From Chloroflexota bacterium (GTDB lineage Bacteria > Chloroflexota > UBA11872): a DNA stretch of 64,000 bases. This document shows positions 20,330-37,854 of this stretch, in pieces. How positions within the stretch are numbered: the stretch's first letter is position 1; each line of letters begins with the position of its first letter. A program made the position numbers and the translations under genes. A model generated the notes under the pieces. It did no database searches. It was not told the DNA's origin and worked only from the letters and a program-made list of their open reading frames with translations. The stretch is from assembly GCA_026707585.1 (NCBI GenBank), contig JAPOWQ010000032.1:7383-71382 (forward strand), written 5' to 3'.

Positions 20330-22774
20330 GTGACCGTCCGGCTGGTGGCGCGAGTTTTGGTCACGGTCCGCAAGTGCCGGGTTGCCGCTGCGAGCTTCGT
20401 GGTAGCCGCGCTCGTCACTCTCTCAGCGACAGGTGCTGCGGCGGGGCCCGCCGATTTCCCGCTCCATCAAGGTTTCTTCTACATGCAGACCGGCGGCGAA
20501 GGTCTGGGCTATGCGGTTCGGGACGAGCCGGGAGCCGCCATCTGGACCGCTTATCAAGACCTTGGCGGTTACGAAGTTCTGGGCTATCCCGTGTCGCAGT
20601 CCTGGCGCGATGGGCCCTTCACGTTCCAGGCGTTTCAGCGAGCGTTGCTGCAGGCTGCTCCCGACGGCAACGTCCGACCCGCCAACATCTACGACGTGCT
20701 TTCCGCGGCCGGGCACGACCCCTGGCTGCAGACGGTAAAAGGTGTGCCGGCGGCCGCCCTTCTGCCACCCGAATCCGGTCCGCTGGCTCGCTTGGACGCT
20801 CTAATGGTCGCGCCGGAAATCGAGGATTTCTGGCGCCAGGCCCCGGATGCCTTGGATCGCTTTGGATTGCCGCTGGGTTACGCATCCGCTGCGGACGGCG
20901 GCGTGCTCCGGGCTCAGCGCGCCGTCCTGCGCCTTAGCGGCGGCAAAGTTCGCCTGGCCCCGGCCGGCGATCACTTCAAGCAGGCCGGGATGATCCCGGC
21001 TCCAAATATGCTGCCAATGGCCCCGCCGCGCATTCCGCGAGCGCTCGTGGAAGCCCACAGTCCCTTAGTAACCAGCGTGGCCTTCGAGCCATCGGGTGGC
21101 GCGTTCGCCACCGGCGGCTATGACCGCCGCGTTGTCATCTGGGACCGGGCGACCTTGACGCCCATCCATGAACTTGAGGGTCACTTCGACGGCATCTACG
21201 AAGTCGCCTATTCCCCTGACGGCTCCCTACTTGCCAGCGCCTCCGAGGATGACACCGTGCGGCTCTGGGATACGCGCTCGGGCGAGCAGATCCATGTGCT
21301 TCAGGCTGACGAGCGTTGGTTTACAAGCGTGGCCTTTAGTCCAGACGGAACGATGGTGGCTGCGACTACCTACGCCGCGGCCCACGTGTGGGATGTGGTG
21401 ACGGGTGAGCATCTCGCCAAGTTCGACGACATCGACGCGTGGTCAAACGGTATCGCCTTTTCGCCCGACGGCAGCCGCCTGGTCACGAGCGGCTGGGCCG
21501 GAGCGGACATCTGGGACATGGCCACGGGCGAGCGCCAACTCTCGTTGACCGAATATCATTCGCGCGCCGTGCTGTCCCTCGCCATCAGTCCCGACGGCAC
21601 GCGCATCGCGACCGGTGCCGATGACAACCTGGCCGTGTTGTGGGACGCCAACAATGGGTCGGCGCTCGCCACCCTCGCAGGCCACAGTGATTCGGTCTGG
21701 CAGGTGGCCTTCAGCCCCGACGGACGCCGGTTGGCCACGGCGTCCAGCGACGCTACGGTGGCTGTCTGGGATGTCGCCACCGCCACCCGCCTCTACAGCC
21801 TGACGGGCCACACCTCGGATGTTCAAGGCCTCAGCTTTAGCCCGGATGGCGAACTCCTGCTATCCGGGAGCTGGGACGGAGACGTTGGCGTGTGGCAAAC
21901 GGCCCTGTCGGAGTTGGCGGCCCAGGCCACTATGCCGGCGCCGGTCAATGCGGTGGATTTCAGTCCCCTCGGAACGTCCGTGGCGACGGCCTTGAATGAC
22001 GGCTCGCTCGTGATCGCTGGAACCGACGGCGCAATCCACGCATCCATCGCCGCCCACGACCGGCCGGCTCGCGCGGTGGCCTACTCGCCGGATGGAGAAG
22101 TCGTGGCCACCGGCGGCGACGACGGCGGGGTGCGGCTGTGGGACGCCGCGCATGGAACGCAGTTGGCCGAAGCGCCGACCGTTCCGGATAGCGTCACCGC
22201 CCTGACGTTCGCGGCGGACGGTCACCTCCTGGCAGGTGACGCCCGCGGCGTCGTCCGACGACTGGACCCGAGCAACGGCGCCCAAGGCTGGACTGTCACG
22301 GTATCCGGCCCCGTCGTGTCGCTGGCAACCGACGGAATCGGCCTTGCGGCCGTAGGCACGTATCGCGAGATCCTGCTTTTCGATGCGGCGACGGGTGTTG
22401 AGCGGTTGCGACTCACAGGGTTCGATGACTGGATTCGCGCTATCCGATTCAACCGACATGTCGCAGAGATGGCGCTGGCGGACGGTGAGACGATCAAGAT
22501 CCTGGCAAGTGGCTCAAACAGCTTGCTGCGGGAGATTGAGCCGGAGGCGGGGCTTATCACGTCGCTGGCCTACCGGCCACACGGCAACGAACTGGCCATC
22601 GGCGCCTATCAACGAACGCTCCTGCGCGATCCCACCGGCGGCCTGAAGCTCGGACGCGCCATCGATGCCCACATCGACTGGATCCGAGCGCTCGCCTACA
22701 GCCCCGACGGCGCGCTGCTGGCCACGGTCGGGGACGACCGCGCCTTGCGCTTCTGGATCACCCGCGCGGACTGA
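20330..22774 (+). CDS. Secreted WD40-repeat beta-propeller protein with an N-terminal LGFP-like repeat module
   Basis: Signal-peptide-like N-terminus and at least 10 WD40 units (GH.D.V..VAFSPDG.LLAS.S.D.TVRLWD). The N-terminal 150 aa are homologous to the N-terminus of the 51943-53520 protein. Confidence 0.8.
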   Translation: MTVRLVARVLVTVRKCRVAAASFVVAALVTLSATGAAAGPADFPLHQGFFYMQTGGEGLGYAVRDEPGAAIWTAYQDLGGYEVLGYPVSQSWRDGPFTFQAFQRALLQAAPDGNVRPANIYDVLSAAGHDPWLQTVKGVPAAALLPPESGPLARLDALMVAPEIEDFWRQAPDALDRFGLPLGYASAADGGVLRAQRAVLRLSGGKVRLAPAGDHFKQAGMIPAPNMLPMAPPRIPRALVEAHSPLVTSVAFEPSGGAFATGGYDRRVVIWDRATLTPIHELEGHFDGIYEVAYSPDGSLLASASEDDTVRLWDTRSGEQIHVLQADERWFTSVAFSPDGTMVAATTYAAAHVWDVVTGEHLAKFDDIDAWSNGIAFSPDGSRLVTSGWAGADIWDMATGERQLSLTEYHSRAVLSLAISPDGTRIATGADDNLAVLWDANNGSALATLAGHSDSVWQVAFSPDGRRLATASSDATVAVWDVATATRLYSLTGHTSDVQGLSFSPDGELLLSGSWDGDVGVWQTALSELAAQATMPAPVNAVDFSPLGTSVATALNDGSLVIAGTDGAIHASIAAHDRPARAVAYSPDGEVVATGGDDGGVRLWDAAHGTQLAEAPTVPDSVTALTFAADGHLLAGDARGVVRRLDPSNGAQGWTVTVSGPVVSLATDGIGLAAVGTYREILLFDAATGVERLRLTGFDDWIRAIRFNRHVAEMALADGETIKILASGSNSLLREIEPEAGLITSLAYRPHGNELAIGAYQRTLLRDPTGGLKLGRAIDAHIDWIRALAYSPDGALLATVGDDRALRFWITRAD

Positions 22775-23996: not shown

Positions 23997-24184
23997 CGGC
24001 TCATTGCAGGATGGTCCCTCAGCGTCGAGCGACACCCTGGCCCAGACACTCGATGTTGAAGCGCCGGCAGGCGTGGCAATAGAGCCATCGCGACGGCGCG
24101 AAGCCTGGGCTGCTTGCGCATTGACCCGGTCGGGGGTGCGTGACAGTATCGAGGTGAGGCCGCGCTAGGTGGGGAGCTAGCGGT

Positions 24185-24435
24185 GCCCTTGAGCCGCAAT
24201 CCGCTATAGCGGGCTGAATCCCCGCCTGAGGGCCGTCCGTAACGTGTCTGCCGCCGACGCTCGGTATTGAACGCCGGGCCTCGTGCGACGAAGGCCTTCC
24301 AACCCCGTCAGGTCCGAGAGGAAGCAGCGGTACGAAGCCCCCTTCGGGCGCCGCGAGTCCACCTGGCCGGAGCCGCGGCCCGACGGTAAGGCGTTGTTGG
24401 ACGGGTCGACGGCGGGTGCGCGGCCTCTATCTCTA
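24185..24435 (+). ncRNA. ffs: Signal recognition particle RNA (ffs), possibly the long form with an Alu-like 5' domain
   Basis: Domain IV consensus GUCAGGUCCGAGAGGAAGCAGC at 24307-24328, with terminal pairing GCCGGGCC/GGCCCGAC. An upstream GGGCUGAAUCCCC...CGUAAC resembles the Alu-domain loops. It sits in the conserved ffs-dnaX-ybaB-recR synteny. Boundaries are approximate; the core alone spans ~24270-24390. Confidence 0.65.
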
Positions 24436-24437
24436 TC

Positions 24438-26120
24438 ATGACGCTGCCGTCAGGCTTGGAGGCTTCCGTGGCTGCGTCGCGTCCGCCGTCGTTTCAGGCG
24501 CTGTATAACCGCTATCGGCCGCAGCGGTTTGATGAGCTGATCGGCCAGGAGCACGTGGTGCGGACGCTGCAGAACGCGCTGGTGCATAACCGGCTGAGCC
24601 ACGCATACCTGTTTTCGGGCGAGCGAGGCACCGGCAAAACCACGGCGGCGCGGCTGTTGGCGAAGGCGGTGAATTGCCTGGAAGGGATCCAGGCGGAGGC
24701 GTGCGGCAGCTGCGAGCACTGCCAGGCCATCACCAACGGGGCGTTCCTGGACCTGATCGAGATGGATGCGGCCTCGCATCGCGGGATTGACGATATCCGC
24801 GAGATCCGGGAGCTGACGCAGTTCGCGCCGGGGGCGGGGCGCTTCCGCGTGTACATCATCGACGAGGTTCATCAGCTGTCGGCGCCGGCGAAGGACGCGT
24901 TGCTGAAGACGCTGGAGGAGCCGCCGCCGCAAACGCTGTTTGTGCTGGCGACGACGGAGCCGCACCGGGTGCCGGCCACGATTCGGTCGCGGACGCAGCA
25001 CCTGACGTTTCGTCGTATTGGCGTGCTGGAGTTGACCGCGCAACTGCGCAGCATTGCCGAGACGGAGGAGGCCCAAATCCAGGAGGCCGCGCTGCACACG
25101 CTGGCTCGGAACGCCGGCGGCAGCGCGCGGGACGCGGTGAGCCTGCTGGACCAGGCGCTGGCGTATAGCGATAACGACGCCACCTCAGAGGCCGTGAACT
25201 CGATGTTGGGGCTGACGGCGCGCGACGCGGTGATTCAACTGCTAGGCCACTTGATGGACGGGGACGCCGCGGCCGGTCTGCAGGCGATTGGACAAGCCAT
25301 CGAGGACGGGACCAGCCCGAACACGCTGCGTCAGCAGATCATCGACATCCTGCGGGACATCCTGATCCTGAAGACCAGTCCCGAGACGAGCGCGGTCGGT
25401 CACCTGACGGAGGACGAGGCGTTTGAGCTGTCGCGGCGCACGGAGAGCTCGAGCCTGCGCGACATCGTGCGCACGCTGGAGGTGTTCGCGGAACCGGACC
25501 CGCCATCACGGACGGGCGTGGACGCGACACTGGAGCTGGAGCTGGCGTTCGCGCGCGCGGTGCTCTCGATTACCGAACCCGTGGAGGCCCCGGCGCCGGT
25601 GCCGGCGGCCAGCGAGACTCGACCTGCGGCTCGTCCCTCGCCCGCACCCGCGCCCGCGCGGCCGGTGGAGTCGCCGACCGCTCCAACGACGCCTCCACCG
25701 CAACCGGCGCAGGCAGCGGCGGGACGCCCGGCCGCCCCCGATGGCGACCTTTCCGCGGCGATGATCGCGGCCCGCAAGGACGATTGGGTCTCGGTGATCC
25801 GCGAGGAGGCTCGCGAAATCGCCCCGTACGCCGGGGAAGCCGAAGTCCTGGACTACGCTGACGGCACGGTGACGCTGGGCTATCGCAGTCGCTTCCTGTT
25901 CGAGCGGGTGCAGCGGCCCGACGCCCTGCGCCAGGTGGCGCGGGCGCTGTCGCAGGTGCTAGACCGCCCGATCCAGGTTCGCAACGAACAACGCAGCGCC
26001 TCGACACCAGCCCGTCGCACGTCGGCCAGGACACCGGTTGACGACGATCCGGTGGTGCGGGTGGCAATGCGCGAGTATGGGGCGACATCCATTCCAGACA
26101 CGTCCGCAACGGGAGGTTGA
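24438..26120 (+). CDS. dnaX: DNA polymerase III subunit gamma/tau
   Basis: YRPQRFDELIGQEHVV, Walker A GERGTGKTT, zinc module CGSCEHCQ, and a Pro/Ala-rich linker. The start may be the GTG at ~24468. Confidence 0.9.
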   Translation: MTLPSGLEASVAASRPPSFQALYNRYRPQRFDELIGQEHVVRTLQNALVHNRLSHAYLFSGERGTGKTTAARLLAKAVNCLEGIQAEACGSCEHCQAITNGAFLDLIEMDAASHRGIDDIREIRELTQFAPGAGRFRVYIIDEVHQLSAPAKDALLKTLEEPPPQTLFVLATTEPHRVPATIRSRTQHLTFRRIGVLELTAQLRSIAETEEAQIQEAALHTLARNAGGSARDAVSLLDQALAYSDNDATSEAVNSMLGLTARDAVIQLLGHLMDGDAAAGLQAIGQAIEDGTSPNTLRQQIIDILRDILILKTSPETSAVGHLTEDEAFELSRRTESSSLRDIVRTLEVFAEPDPPSRTGVDATLELELAFARAVLSITEPVEAPAPVPAASETRPAARPSPAPAPARPVESPTAPTTPPPQPAQAAAGRPAAPDGDLSAAMIAARKDDWVSVIREEAREIAPYAGEAEVLDYADGTVTLGYRSRFLFERVQRPDALRQVARALSQVLDRPIQVRNEQRSASTPARRTSARTPVDDDPVVRVAMREYGATSIPDTSATGG

Positions 26121-27740: not shown

Positions 27741-28295
27741 CTAGCTTCCGGGTCGGCGTGGGGGCAGGCAGGTTACTTCGGCTTCCTTGGTCAGGTCGTC
27801 GAAGTGGGCTTCACGGACGTTGCCGACTTCCACGGACGTGATCCTGGCTGACACCCGCACGGGTTCGTGGACGAGGCAACGCAGGGCCGACTCCCAACGC
27901 AGGGTGACTCCGGCGCGCAGGCGTTCGGGAACCCAGGTCAGAGTCTTGGATTCGCGAGCGCTGGCGCCGATCTCGCGTCCGTCCTCGTTCGTAATCTTGG
28001 CCCGCGTGGTGGGACTGTAGTCACGGTCTGAGCCCGCATTCTCGGGCAGCGTGAGGGTTGTCTCGATCAGGACGTCCGCTTGACCGATGTTGGTCACCTG
28101 CAGGATGACGTTGGTGCGGCTGGGTCCGGCCACCTCGGTCTGAATCTCGAATCTGAGTTCGGGCGCGGGGGTGGGCGTCGCGAGTGGCTCTACGGTCTCG
28201 CGGCAATCAGCGGCGGCCAGCCCCATCAGCAGCATGGCCAGCGACGCCACGGCTGACGCCAGGCGCCGACCGTGGACAGTGAATCCAGCGTTCAT
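27741..28295 (-). CDS. Secreted/lipoprotein-like hypothetical protein
   Basis: Signal peptide with Cys (LMGLAAADC); no recognised domain. Confidence 0.45.
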   Translation of the reverse strand: MNAGFTVHGRRLASAVASLAMLLMGLAAADCRETVEPLATPTPAPELRFEIQTEVAGPSRTNVILQVTNIGQADVLIETTLTLPENAGSDRDYSPTTRAKITNEDGREIGASARESKTLTWVPERLRAGVTLRWESALRCLVHEPVRVSARITSVEVGNVREAHFDDLTKEAEVTCLPPRRPGS

Positions 28296-29507
28296 GACCT
28301 AGAGCTTAGTGCAGAATGCGCCGTTGTCGGAGGTTTGCGCTGCGACGCGCCAAATCCAGGGGTCCGGAACATCGAACGTCCGCTGACGATCACGCTGCTT
28401 TTTCTGCGGCTGGGGCTGACGGCCTTCGGTGGCCCTGCGGCACACATCGCCATGATGCGGCACGAGTTCGTGACGCGCCGCGAATGGCTGACGGACCGCC
28501 GTTTTCTCGATCTCCTGGGGGTCACAAACCTGATCCCTGGTCCGAATTCCACCGAGATGGCGATTCACCTTGGCCGCGAACGGGCCGGCTGGCGTGGGCT
28601 GGTGGGCGCCGGGGTGGCGTTCATTGCTCCGGCTGCGGTGATGGTTTCGGTCCTGGCCTGGGTCTATGTCGAGTTCGGATCGACGCCGGCGGTGACCTGG
28701 GTGTTGTACGGCGTCAAGCCCGTCGTAATCGCTATCGTGGCCCAGGCCATTTGGGGCCTGGGACGCGTGGTGGTGCGCCGCTGGCAGACGGCGCTGCTGG
28801 CCGCGGGTGTAATTGCCCTTGGTCTACTGGGCGTCAATGAGCTGGTGCTCCTATTTGGCGGCGGCGCTGTGGGCGCGGTGCTGCAGCGTCCGCGGTGGCT
28901 GACGGGACGGCTCTCGGGAGTGCTTGTCGCGCCGCTGGCCAGCGTCGGCGTGGTCGGCGCGGTACCGACGACGTTCAGCCTGCTGGGCATGGCGTTGCTG
29001 TTTCTCAAGATCGGCGCGGTGCTATACGGCAGCGGTTATGTGTTGCTGGCCTTCTTGCGGGCCGATTTTGTGGAGCGCATGGGCTGGCTGACGGAAACAC
29101 AATTGCTGGACGCCGTGGCGATCGGGCAGGTCACGCCGGGGCCCGTATTCACCACGGCCACGTTTATCGGGTTTCTGCTGGCGGGGGTACCGGGCGCCGT
29201 AGTGGCCACGGTGGCGATTTTCCTGCCGTCATTCGTGTTCGTGGCAGCCGTTCACCCGCTGGTCGAGCGGCTGCGCGCGTCCAGCATTACGGCTCCCATA
29301 CTCGACGCGGTCAACGCGGCCGCGGTGGGGCTGATGACCGTGGTGATGGTGCTCCTTGGTCGCTCGGCGCTGGTGGACCTGCCGACAATCCTGGTGGCGC
29401 TGGTGGCGCTGGGCGTACTGATCTTCGCCAAGGTCAACTCGCTCTGGCTGATCCTCGCGGGTGCGGCTGTGGGCGCCGTGGTGCAGGGCGTGGGACTGGC
29501 GCCGTAG
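28272..29507 (+). CDS. chrA: Chromate transporter (CHR family, ChrA-like two-domain)
   Basis: GLTAFGGPAAHIAMM...NLIPGPNSTEM motif and a duplicated CHR domain. Start uncertain: the listed ATG overlaps the divergent gene start by 24 nt, and TTG 28335 is an alternative. Confidence 0.75.
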   Translation: MDSESSVHDLELSAECAVVGGLRCDAPNPGVRNIERPLTITLLFLRLGLTAFGGPAAHIAMMRHEFVTRREWLTDRRFLDLLGVTNLIPGPNSTEMAIHLGRERAGWRGLVGAGVAFIAPAAVMVSVLAWVYVEFGSTPAVTWVLYGVKPVVIAIVAQAIWGLGRVVVRRWQTALLAAGVIALGLLGVNELVLLFGGGAVGAVLQRPRWLTGRLSGVLVAPLASVGVVGAVPTTFSLLGMALLFLKIGAVLYGSGYVLLAFLRADFVERMGWLTETQLLDAVAIGQVTPGPVFTTATFIGFLLAGVPGAVVATVAIFLPSFVFVAAVHPLVERLRASSITAPILDAVNAAAVGLMTVVMVLLGRSALVDLPTILVALVALGVLIFAKVNSLWLILAGAAVGAVVQGVGLAP

Positions 29508-35044: not shown

Positions 35045-35683
35045 TTGAATCCTGAACACATCCCAACGTACGCCCTCGTGGGCGTGATTGCCTACATGAT
35101 TGGCAGCGTGCCGGCGGCGTTGCTGGCGACGGCGATCCTCAAGCGGTCGGACCTGCGCAACACCGGCTCCGGCAACCTGGGCATCCAGAACACGTTCTTC
35201 CGAGCCGGCAAGCTTCCCGCCGTCATCGCCCTGCTGTGGAACGTGGCCGCGGCCGCCTCGTCGGTGATGCTGGCGCGGGCGCTGGCGCCAGACGAACCCG
35301 CGGTGGAGTTGATCGCGATCACAGCCGTCACCACGGGCAGCATGTGGCAGATTTTTGTGCGGTTCCGCGGCAGCCGCGGCACCACTACCATGGGCTTCGC
35401 GCTGCTGGTGGCCCAGCCCGCGATCTGGGCCGTGTGCCTGGGGGTCTGGCTCCTGGCTCTGCTGCCGCGCCGCCGGACCACCGACGCTACCCCCACGGTT
35501 CACGCGCTGCTGCCCGCCATATTTGCCATGTACGCCCTGTTCGGCAATCCCGACCCGTGGTGGATCTACGCAATCTGGGGCGGCGTGCTTGGCGCGCTCC
35601 TCGAATTGAAGCGCCGAACCAGTCCCGACGACGCCCTGGCGCTCGGCTTGTACCGGCGCTTCGGCGTCAACGTGCACGAGTAG
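35045..35683 (+). CDS. plsY: Glycerol-3-phosphate acyltransferase PlsY (acyl-phosphate dependent)
   Basis: GSGNLG motif and 5 TM segments, ~210 aa. Confidence 0.85.
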   Translation: MNPEHIPTYALVGVIAYMIGSVPAALLATAILKRSDLRNTGSGNLGIQNTFFRAGKLPAVIALLWNVAAAASSVMLARALAPDEPAVELIAITAVTTGSMWQIFVRFRGSRGTTTMGFALLVAQPAIWAVCLGVWLLALLPRRRTTDATPTVHALLPAIFAMYALFGNPDPWWIYAIWGGVLGALLELKRRTSPDDALALGLYRRFGVNVHE

Positions 35684-35701
35684 CCGCACGAGGCCCGCGC
35701 G

Positions 35702-36760
35702 CTGCGCGTCGCGTTCAACGCCTACTTTCGGCGCCTACCGGACACGGGTTCTGGCCAGTACCTGGGTTCACTCGTGCAGGCCCTGAGGGCGGGCTACCCC
35801 GACATCGTGATCAACGAGCACACACCGCCTCGGATTCTGAGTGGCCATGCCGGCAAGGTCGCGTGGGAGCAGGCGCTGTGGCCATGGCGGGCGCGCGGCG
35901 CCCTTGGCCATGCTCCCTACCTTGCACCGCCGCTGCTCGCGCCAGGGACGGTCGTAACCGTCCACGACCTGATCCCGCTGGCGATGCCGGCGTATCGGGC
36001 AGGTCGCGGCCAGGCTCTCTACTTCTGGTTGGTTCGAGCGGGTTTGCGGCGGGCGCGAACCCTGATAGCCGACTCTGAATCGACCCGAAACGATCTCGCG
36101 AGGCTGGCGGGCGTCTCGTCTGGTCGAGTCCACGTCGTGCCGCTGGGTGTCGATGAGCGCTTTCGTCCCGCAGACGCGGCAACCCGTTCCCACGCCCGCC
36201 AGCGGTTGGGGTTGCCGGAACGATTCGGCCTGTTTCTCAGCACGCGTGACCTGCGCAAGAACCTGGGCGTGGTGCTGGCGGCCTGGCCGGAGGTCTGGCG
36301 GACCTGTCGCTTGCCCCTGGTCGTCGCCGGGCGCTCGCCGCGCCAGGCCAGCCGCGTCTACGTCGACTGGTTCGCCGACCTCGATCCCAGCGCCGACGAC
36401 TGGCTGCACGTATACGGTCCCGTGGACGAACGCGACAAGCCTGATCTCTATCGCGCGGCCGATGTTTTCGTCTTCCCCTCCCGCTACGAAGGCTTCGGTC
36501 TGGATCCGCTGGAAGCCATGGCCAGTGGCGTGCCGGTGATCGCCGCCAGGGCGACATCGCTTCCCGAGGTGGTCGGCGATGCCGGTCCGCTCCTGCCTCC
36601 CGACGAGCCGGCCGCTTGGTCCGACGCTATTGCGGCGATGGCCTGCGATTCCGCAGCGGCCACCGAGATGCGCGAGCGCGGCCTCGCGCGCGCGGCGACG
36701 TTTACCTGGGCCCGGACCGCCGAACGCACGCATGCCGTCTACCGCCAGGCGTCGATATGA
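35702..36760 (+). CDS. Family-4 (GT-B) glycosyltransferase; start unresolved
   Basis: C-terminal GT4 motif (FVFPSRYEGFGLDPLEAMASGVPVI). The conserved N-terminal GT4 region (LRVAFNAYFRRLPDTGSGQYLGSL) lies upstream of the first GTG (35774), in frame with plsY and right after its TAG. The only candidate start is CTG 35702. Confidence 0.65.
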   Translation: MRVAFNAYFRRLPDTGSGQYLGSLVQALRAGYPDIVINEHTPPRILSGHAGKVAWEQALWPWRARGALGHAPYLAPPLLAPGTVVTVHDLIPLAMPAYRAGRGQALYFWLVRAGLRRARTLIADSESTRNDLARLAGVSSGRVHVVPLGVDERFRPADAATRSHARQRLGLPERFGLFLSTRDLRKNLGVVLAAWPEVWRTCRLPLVVAGRSPRQASRVYVDWFADLDPSADDWLHVYGPVDERDKPDLYRAADVFVFPSRYEGFGLDPLEAMASGVPVIAARATSLPEVVGDAGPLLPPDEPAAWSDAIAAMACDSAAATEMRERGLARAATFTWARTAERTHAVYRQASI

Positions 36761-37854
36761 GAGTGCTGCTGGCGTCCAAGGCGCTGGTCGTGGGCGCGCA
36801 CCACGACAAGCTGCGGGCGCTTGGCGCCAATCCCGATCTTGACCTGCTGGCCGTGGCGCCCGATCGCTGGATCGAGCAGGGGCGGGCCCAAATGGCCGAA
36901 CGCCCACCCCCGCGCGGATACGAGATTGCCTACACCCCGCTGGCTCTCAATGGGCGCTACCACCTGTTCTGGTTCCGCCGACTGCGCCAGCTCATGCGCC
37001 GCTTCCGCCCCGACGTGCTCCACATCGACGAGGAGCCCTACAACCTGGCCACGGCCATCGCCTGCCGCGATGCCGTGCGCTACGGCGTGCGTCCGGTGTT
37101 CTTTGCCTGGCAGAACCTCTACCGCCGTTATCCGCCGCCGTTTCGTTGGCTTGAGCGCTACGTATTGGAGCGCGCGGAGGGCATTGTTGGCAGCGAAGCT
37201 GCGAGCGACGTGCTCCGCCGGAAGGGGCATGCGCGGCGCATCGCGGTTATCCCGCAGTTCGGCGTGGATCCCCTGGTCTTTGCGCCGCGCCCGCAGCTGC
37301 GTGAGCCCGGGCGATTCGTCGTGGGCTACGCCGGACGTCTGATTGCGGCCAAGGGCGTGGACATCCTGATCCGTGCGGCCGGATCGATCGGTGATGACGT
37401 GACGCTGCGCCTGGCCGGAATCGGCCCTGCCGAGCCCGACCTGCGGCGCATGTCCGCCGCCATGCCGGGCGTCATGTTTGAGGGGGCGATCCCCAGCGCT
37501 GACATGCCGACCTTCTTCAACGGGTTGGACGCGTTTGTATTGCCCACGGTCGGGCGGCGTGGATGGACCGAGCAGTTTGGCCGCGCCGCCGTGGAAGCCA
37601 TGGCCTGCGGCGTGCCGACGGTTGTGGCAAACACCGGCGAGCTTCCCCAGGTCGTGGACAAAGCCGGTGTTGTCGTACCGACGGGTGACACGCACGCCCT
37701 GGCCGAGGCGTTGAAGCAGCTACGCGACGACCCGGAGCGCTGTGAGCGTTTGGCCCTGGCGGGCCGGGCACACGTACTGGAGCGTTACACGACCGAGGCC
37801 GTGGCCGACGCTACAGCCGCCTTCTACCGGTTGATCGCCAACGACCAGGGCTAG
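36757..37854 (+). CDS. Family-4 glycosyltransferase (second copy)
   Basis: MRVLLAS N-terminus and GT4 C-terminal motifs. ATGA overlap with the upstream GT4. Confidence 0.8.
   Translation: MRVLLASKALVVGAHHDKLRALGANPDLDLLAVAPDRWIEQGRAQMAERPPPRGYEIAYTPLALNGRYHLFWFRRLRQLMRRFRPDVLHIDEEPYNLATAIACRDAVRYGVRPVFFAWQNLYRRYPPPFRWLERYVLERAEGIVGSEAASDVLRRKGHARRIAVIPQFGVDPLVFAPRPQLREPGRFVVGYAGRLIAAKGVDILIRAAGSIGDDVTLRLAGIGPAEPDLRRMSAAMPGVMFEGAIPSADMPTFFNGLDAFVLPTVGRRGWTEQFGRAAVEAMACGVPTVVANTGELPQVVDKAGVVVPTGDTHALAEALKQLRDDPERCERLALAGRAHVLERYTTEAVADATAAFYRLIANDQG

Follow-up and report, generated by a model that had tools for sequence, protein, structure and literature searches.

CTG is listed among the bacterial start codons and is rare in that role. 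In Deinococcus-Thermus, rpsL (ribosomal protein S12) has a conserved CTG start that has been validated by mass spectrometry proteomics, and a CTG start was deduced for Deide_03051 from elements of the fold, a β strand and a helix, that would otherwise be missing (Baudet et al. 2010, PMC2830850). Near-cognate codons also serve as starts in Escherichia coli, with ATT in infC and pcnB and CTG in the plasmid gene repA (Hecht et al., 10.1101/063800). Where stop and start codons overlap or adjoin each other (ATGA, TGATG), the translation of two genes can be coupled through termination and reinitiation (Huber et al. 2019, PMC6728339). Here, we describe a GT4 glycosyltransferase gene for which a CTG start is proposed. 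It is located in a 64,000-nucleotide stretch of DNA from a Chloroflexota bacterium (contig JAPOWQ010000032.1), the whole of which is referred to as the window, and it directly follows a plsY-like gene. Comparison with relatives suggests that the GT4 gene is intact and is translated from the CTG at 35702, a reading to which we give a probability of about 0.8.

The plsY-like gene (35045–35683, + strand; 212 residues, TTG start at 35045) is the upstream partner of the pair. Its stop codon, TAG 35681–35683 (+), shares a frame with the GT4 gene and lies 18 nt 5′ of the proposed start. A preliminary description, made from the sequence of the window, stated that the 30 in-frame codons after this TAG hold no ATG, GTG, or TTG until GTG 35774, and the sequence reads exactly so. 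The codons begin with CCG CAC GAG GCC CGC GCG, continue with CTG CGC GTC GCG TTC AAC, and translate as PHEARALRVAFNAYFRRLPDTGSGQYLGSLVQAL; divided at the proposed start, the translation consists of PHEARA (the spacer) and LRVAFNAYFRRLPDTGSGQYLGSLVQAL (from CTG 35702). Read from CTG 35702–35704 (+), the open reading frame (ORF) that ends at 36760 encodes 352 residues and a stop (full coding sequence 35702–36760, +), with a product that begins MRVAFNAYFRRLPDTGSGQYL. GTG 35774–35776 (+), the first canonical in-frame codon, is codon 25 of this ORF; it would encode an internal residue, Val25, and is not conserved as a start. By our own estimate, 30 successive codons would lack a canonical start by chance in about 20% of cases, and the run is therefore unremarkable by itself; the notable part is what those codons encode.

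Conservation of the CTG codon

The DNA of the window was aligned with the loci L001–L010 and then with L023, L025, L026, L028, and L031. The codon at 35702 is CTG in 15 of 15 distinct sequences, which cover 61–99% protein identity. Among 14 distinct sequences, none of the 23 columns that are leucine throughout keeps one single codon, and only 2 of the 160 columns that are invariant in amino acid do so. The CTG is kept beyond what synonymous drift would allow, and the constraint is therefore on the triplet itself rather than on a leucine encoded by it. Synonymous change is abundant in the GT4 genes of this clade (pS of approximately 0.5, saturated with respect to the deepest member), and what would be a weak start codon has been kept over evolutionary distances that saturate synonymous sites. 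In the outgroup orthologs (L018–L022; 53–58% identity), which share the gene order, the aligned codon is GTG and the N-terminus reads VRVE[ILF]NAYFR. The simplest history would be one G-to-C change (GTG to CTG) in the ancestor of the clade, kept since. A pattern scan of metagenomes, in which the first base of the start codon was left as N, added only one locus (L023), which has CTG too.

From the plsY stop up to the conserved N-terminus, no locus of the clade has an ATG, GTG, or TTG in frame, and the first canonical in-frame codon is found anywhere from codon 21 to codon 62. The codon equivalent to GTG 35774 is GTT, GCT, GTC, ATT, CTG, or CGT in relatives. Orthologs with a start at this position would have spoken for a shorter gene, as the preliminary description pointed out, and none genuinely starts there. 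The same description had left four options for the origin of the N-terminus (a CTG start, readthrough of the plsY stop, a programmed event, or an assembly error). The comparison with orthologous loci favours the first of these, as 15 relatives all have the CTG, the GTG of the outgroup lies at the aligned position, and a Shine–Dalgarno-like motif stands 8 nt upstream.

The sequences are metagenome assembled and CTG is one base away from GTG, ATG, and TTG, which would allow for a start codon misread in sequencing or assembly, or for a gene decaying to a pseudogene. The identical CTG, together with the same stop and spacer, is found in more than 15 independent assemblies of different studies, including long-read chromosomes of 3–4 Mb. 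The ORF is intact, with 352 codons, in all clade assemblies that carry the CTG, and the ratio of non-synonymous to synonymous change (pN/pS) is approximately 0.24. The probability of an error or of decay is accordingly negligible.

The proposed CTG start of the GT4 gene belongs to a known type of rare start, in a different phylum and a different gene, and it is already implicit in GenBank through the NCBI annotation of two metagenome-assembled genomes (MAGs). The proteins MCY3749710.1 (P0001; from a 99%-identical MAG) and MCY3958097.1 are both 352 residues long and start at the CTG. The ENA/Logan gene calls hold the exact 328-residue product of the window (P0241), and their calls in relatives of 60–88% identity are 268–332 residues long and cut at varying points. 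The expectation that automated annotation would truncate the gene thus holds for ENA/Logan and fails for NCBI, which gives the full 352 residues. Calls of the ENA/Logan type strip the first 20–84 residues of the GT4 protein across the clade and, in some genomes, the Walker A motif of the ATPase described below; alignments of the family, predicted structures, and pangenome clusters that start from such calls are therefore wrong.

The N-terminal segment of the GT4 product

By profile matches and by its predicted structure, the gene product is assigned as a GT4 glycosyltransferase with a GT-B fold. It matches Pfam PF13692 (94 bits), PF00534 (85 bits), and PF13439 (55 bits), all above their cutoffs; the Pfam names for the ORF are Glycos_transf_1, Glyco_trans_1_4, and Glyco_transf_4. 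A search among 5.8 billion proteins found relatives from uncultured Chloroflexota. In a 40-sequence alignment of the family, both glutamates of the E-x7-E motif (E263 and E271, in EGFGLDPLE) are invariant. The same alignment shows G16, G18, and L24 to be invariant and N6, F9, and Q19 to be nearly so; these residues all lie in the 24 codons (35702–35773, +) that precede any canonical start. The full N-terminus is encoded in every relative (tblastn, one genome per species), in agreement with the earlier suggestion that the codons after the TAG encode a conserved GT4 N-terminus. Codons 2–24 are under the same purifying selection as the remainder of the gene: across nine clade sequences, pN/pS is 0.23 for codons 2–24 and 0.24 for codons 25–352.

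A sequence search of the PDB left the N-terminus unaligned, with matches that start at residue 69 or later; an AlphaFold2 model and Foldseek were used instead. The model of the 352-residue protein has a mean predicted local distance difference test score (pLDDT) of 95.8 and a predicted template modelling score (pTM) of 0.93. Residues 2–6 form strand β1 and residues 16–31 form helix α1 of the N-terminal Rossmann domain, such that the 24 codons would encode β1, the glycine loop (TGSGQY), and the beginning of α1. The two Rossmann-like domains of the model superpose on solved GT4 enzymes. Foldseek matches GlgM (6tvp) with a TM-score of 0.83, and MshA, PimB′, BshA, and WaaG also match, all with a probability of 1.00. 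The solved retaining GT-B enzymes of the family (MshA 3c48/3c4q, GlgM 6tvp, PimB′ 3oka, and WaaG) are like the window protein in Pfam domains, in fold (TM-score up to 0.83), in the E-x7-E motif, and in the N-terminal glycine loop; they differ in that identity is only 15–26% and in that the N-terminal domain of the window protein is compact (352 residues in total).

According to the model, β1 and the glycine-rich loop are present only if translation begins at CTG 35702. This bears on the alternative of a protein truncated at the N-terminus, with the first canonical codon (in the window, GTG 35774) as its start. Gene finders restricted to ATG, GTG, and TTG do yield such products, with 328 residues here and 268–332 in relatives. 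The GTG is not conserved, the first canonical codon of relatives shifting between codons 21 and 62, and the 24 omitted codons are under equal purifying selection. In the N-terminal Rossmann domain, they account for the central β1 and for the glycine loop, which is invariant; a product starting at residue 25 would be without both. We regard a truncated protein as very unlikely.

The spacer and the upstream plsY-like gene

The spacer between the plsY stop and the CTG (35684–35701, +) is 18 nt long and holds a Shine–Dalgarno-like GAGG at 35690–35693, 8 nt before the CTG. The distance is 18 nt in all loci of the clade, and the outgroup has 18 or 15 nt from stop to GTG. The motif keeps its place 8 nt before the CTG throughout, as GAGG or, in a few members of the clade, AAGG or GGGG. 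With an assumed CCUCC anti-Shine–Dalgarno sequence, the duplex energy is approximately −5.9 kcal/mol in the window and approximately −5 to −6 kcal/mol at most loci of the CTG clade, with weaker duplexes in L005 (−2.8 kcal/mol) and L006 (−3.2 kcal/mol). The GTG sites of the outgroup give −2.4 to −3.2 kcal/mol, and the median of 19 neighbouring genes with canonical starts is −3.3 kcal/mol. The stronger Shine–Dalgarno pairing could compensate for a weak codon.

The first codons of the spacer show non-synonymous changes within the clade, and its sequence is unrelated in the outgroup; the sole conserved spacer codons are the CGC GCG pair directly 5′ of the CTG. This pattern leaves little room for initiation at some other non-canonical codon of the spacer. 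AAG, a near-cognate of AUG, does occur in the spacer of L005 and L007, but the CTG is the only conserved NTG and is an exact match to the start position of the outgroup. A frameshift out of plsY, as one kind of programmed event, would be of no help, the plsY-like and GT4 genes being already in the same frame. Both possibilities seem remote.

The shared frame is an argument for readthrough of the plsY TAG, which would give a PlsY–glycosyltransferase fusion and place the enzyme at the membrane. At each locus examined, the two ORFs keep one frame across the 18- or 15-nt spacer, and a membrane-anchored glycolipid glycosyltransferase would be functionally sensible. A stop is retained, yet TAG (most clade members) exchanges with TAA (L007 and L008), and TAG is an ordinary terminator here, ending 7 of 22 NCBI-called genes in the neighbourhood. 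First codon positions of the spacer have changed non-synonymously, and the outgroup, with a GTG start of its own for the GT4 gene, has an unrelated spacer sequence. No protein of fusion length (none above 420 residues) is present among the best 120 of 7263 homologs. No tRNA gene, suppressor tRNA included, was found in the 64-kb window. The CTG of the ATPase gene described below is out of frame with its upstream ORF and would be unexplained by readthrough. Together, these observations make a fusion highly improbable, and the readthrough and programmed-event options of the preliminary description are disfavoured.

The plsY-like ORF matches Pfam PF02660 (G3P_acyltransf; 2.2e-23, above the Pfam cutoff), and the NCBI call in L001 and L024 is the same 212 residues. 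The product scores below the NCBIfam cutoff for the PlsY equivalog (71 versus 137 bits) and may be a divergent acyltransferase of the PlsY family rather than the housekeeping enzyme. The gene is positioned within a glycosyltransferase/envelope cluster.

Returning to initiation at CTG 35702, the codon would be read as the initiator methionine of the 352-residue protein, with weak initiation aided by the GAGG motif 8 nt upstream. Translational coupling of the GT4 gene to the plsY-like gene, whose stop is a fixed 18 nt upstream on what would be the same mRNA, is plausible from the arrangement of the two genes. The fixed spacing, the Shine–Dalgarno-like motif, and the lack of an intervening promoter or terminator fit such coupling; no promoter- or terminator-like site was found between the two genes. 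A ribosome that has completed plsY would resume translation at the CTG or else make the site accessible to fresh initiation. The outcome would likely be a low level of glycosyltransferase linked to that of the plsY product.

Several points weigh against translation from the CTG as described. The use of the codon is argued from conservation alone, in uncultured organisms. CUG is a poor initiator, with 1–2% of the activity of AUG in E. coli (10.1101/063800), and expression of the GT4 gene from CUG could be very low. The anti-Shine–Dalgarno sequence was assumed and not read from the lineage, since the 16S rRNA lies outside the window. Covariation lends no support to the pairing predicted between the 3′ end of plsY and the start region (RNAalifold on 10 sequences gave −10.5 kcal/mol for the start region with zero compensatory pairs); we make no claim for a hairpin or an occluding structure around the spacer. 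A minor or trace readthrough product may also be formed, though nothing requires it.

Other starts, neighbouring genes, and known systems

An ABC transporter ATPase gene (40010–40921, − strand; 303 residues) appears to initiate in the same way as the GT4 gene, from a CTG that overlaps the upstream TGA. The Walker A motif (GPNGAGKST) is located upstream of the first canonical ATG, 40771, and the codon-score scan finds a coding signal that reaches 56 codons upstream of this ATG. The proposed start, CTG 40919–40921 (−), overlaps TGA 40918–40920 of the upstream 282-residue gene (“CTGA”, 4-nt overlap) and has an AAGGA/GAGGA motif 7 nt upstream. Read from CTG 40921, the N-terminus is (M)NDHPAITLAGVSK. 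The “CTGA” is kept in the window and in L024, L025, L026, and L027; L031 reads TTG (“TTGA”) at this site, and the outgroup loci L029 and L030 read ATG (MDAPAIHL and MSAPPVIDI). Several relatives of at least 90% identity have 303-residue products starting MSD..AIGLAGVSKRY, and the IMG protein P0256, of the same length, begins with “L” at the position of the CTG. NCBIfam ABC-ATPase profiles align from residues 5–7 of the 303-residue form. The ENA call is 253 residues long. The NCBI pipeline, which recovers the GT4 start, picks a non-conserved CTG for the ATPase (40897; 295 residues); this codon is CTT in L025 and was rejected as the start, and the NCBI call probably begins eight codons too late.

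For 52 genes of the window, codon usage was examined for a coding signal that reaches 12 or more codons beyond the first canonical start in the 5′ direction. Clear cases are limited to the ABC ATPase gene (56 codons) and the GT4 gene (29 codons). The same two genes stand out when starts are compared in 17 syntenic gene families, the other 15 of which have conserved canonical starts. The sister strain L024, which is 96.8% identical to 25693–46760 of the window, has 3 non-canonical starts in 22 NCBI-called genes. ATG, GTG, and TTG together make up 99.95% of the annotated starts of model genomes with good annotation (10.1101/063800). Two of 52 is far above the resulting 0.05% baseline (Poisson estimate of approximately 3 × 10−4), with the reservation that the baseline is biased against non-canonical starts and the sample is small. 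The two genes hint that CUG is tolerated in this lineage at the starts of putatively coupled genes. That the lineage uses CUG routinely as an initiation codon at translationally coupled sites, and not as a one-off, is a tentative idea that we hold to be rather unlikely. If true, it would imply that start codons are proofread less strictly, by way of 16S rRNA, the initiator tRNA, or IF3, or in reinitiation specifically, and standard gene finders would truncate a noticeable share of the proteome of the lineage. As a genome-wide habit, it would characterise translation initiation at the level of the lineage.

Two further candidates were rejected. The chromate efflux transporter (28272–29507, +), to which NCBI gives an ATC start in L024, is not a case of a conserved non-canonical start. 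In its relatives, the protein begins with “MQNAP”, 21 codons before the conserved body is reached. The corresponding GTG 28309 of the window is not in the frame of the transporter body (region 28309–28371), and in L024 reading from this start leads into a TGA; the 5′ end of the gene looks disrupted or relocated in the species of the window, implying an indel. A weak flag in the codon scores at 40918–41943 belongs to a gene with a conserved canonical start in relatives. Another weak flag (score 3.1) falls on 20330–22774 (+), with 15 coding-like codons before the first canonical GTG and a CTG close to where the extension begins.

The GT4 gene is followed by a further GT4 gene of the operon (36757–37854, +), the ATG of which overlaps the stop of the first (ATGA). 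The pair is adjoined in all relatives by an oxidoreductase gene of the GFO_IDH_MocA type (37860–39131, −; 423 residues) with a C-terminal NIL domain, an unusual combination. On the other side, the ancestral order, seen in relatives and the outgroup (upstream blocks of L025–L031), has Wzy_C, LPG_synthase_TM, and another GT4 gene upstream of the plsY-like gene on the same strand. In the species of the window, this block is replaced by a TgpA-like gene, three small ORFs, and a divergent UDG gene, with a break in synteny at approximately 34990, and the plsY-like gene now heads the operon. The rearrangement was considered as a cause of the CTG and rejected; relatives with the ancestral gene order also carry the CTG, which therefore predates it. 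Elsewhere in the window, a bacterial large signal recognition particle RNA (24160–24423, +; Rfam RF01854, 143 bits) is located directly 5′ of a dnaX-like gene (24438–26120), which is followed by homologs of ybaB and recR.

A literature search for CTG starts in Chloroflexi gave nothing relevant, and the literature searched contained no description of the present case. The closest described cases are rpsL and Deide_03051. As there, a conserved N-terminus is encoded without ATG, GTG, or TTG and the CTG is common to related genomes, and the argument from missing elements of the fold is the same as for Deide_03051. Unlike rpsL, the GT4 case is comparative only and concerns a glycosyltransferase in Chloroflexota, with the CTG at a fixed distance from an upstream stop. 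The likeness to the near-cognate starts of E. coli is that a weak start codon would be retained by selection. The weak start codon of infC underlies the autoregulation of initiation factor 3 (IF3); no regulatory role is known for that of the GT4 gene. The locus offers a natural test case of whether low expression of an envelope glycosyltransferase, linked to the upstream gene, is selected.

Like the coupled pairs described by Huber et al. (PMC6728339), the plsY-like and GT4 genes are co-directional, with a start few nucleotides from the upstream stop and a Shine–Dalgarno-like motif inside or just after the upstream ORF. The “CTGA” of the ABC ATPase gene is the CTG analogue of ATGA. That study treats canonical starts and makes no mention of CTG or CUG, and coupling in the window is proposed from the arrangement of the sequence. 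The features that would set the two genes apart are a CTG at a fixed distance from the upstream stop, or overlapping it, and the exchange of CTG with TTG and ATG at the ATPase site. Set beside the canonical pairs, they provide a natural test case of how far translational coupling relaxes the choice of start codon.

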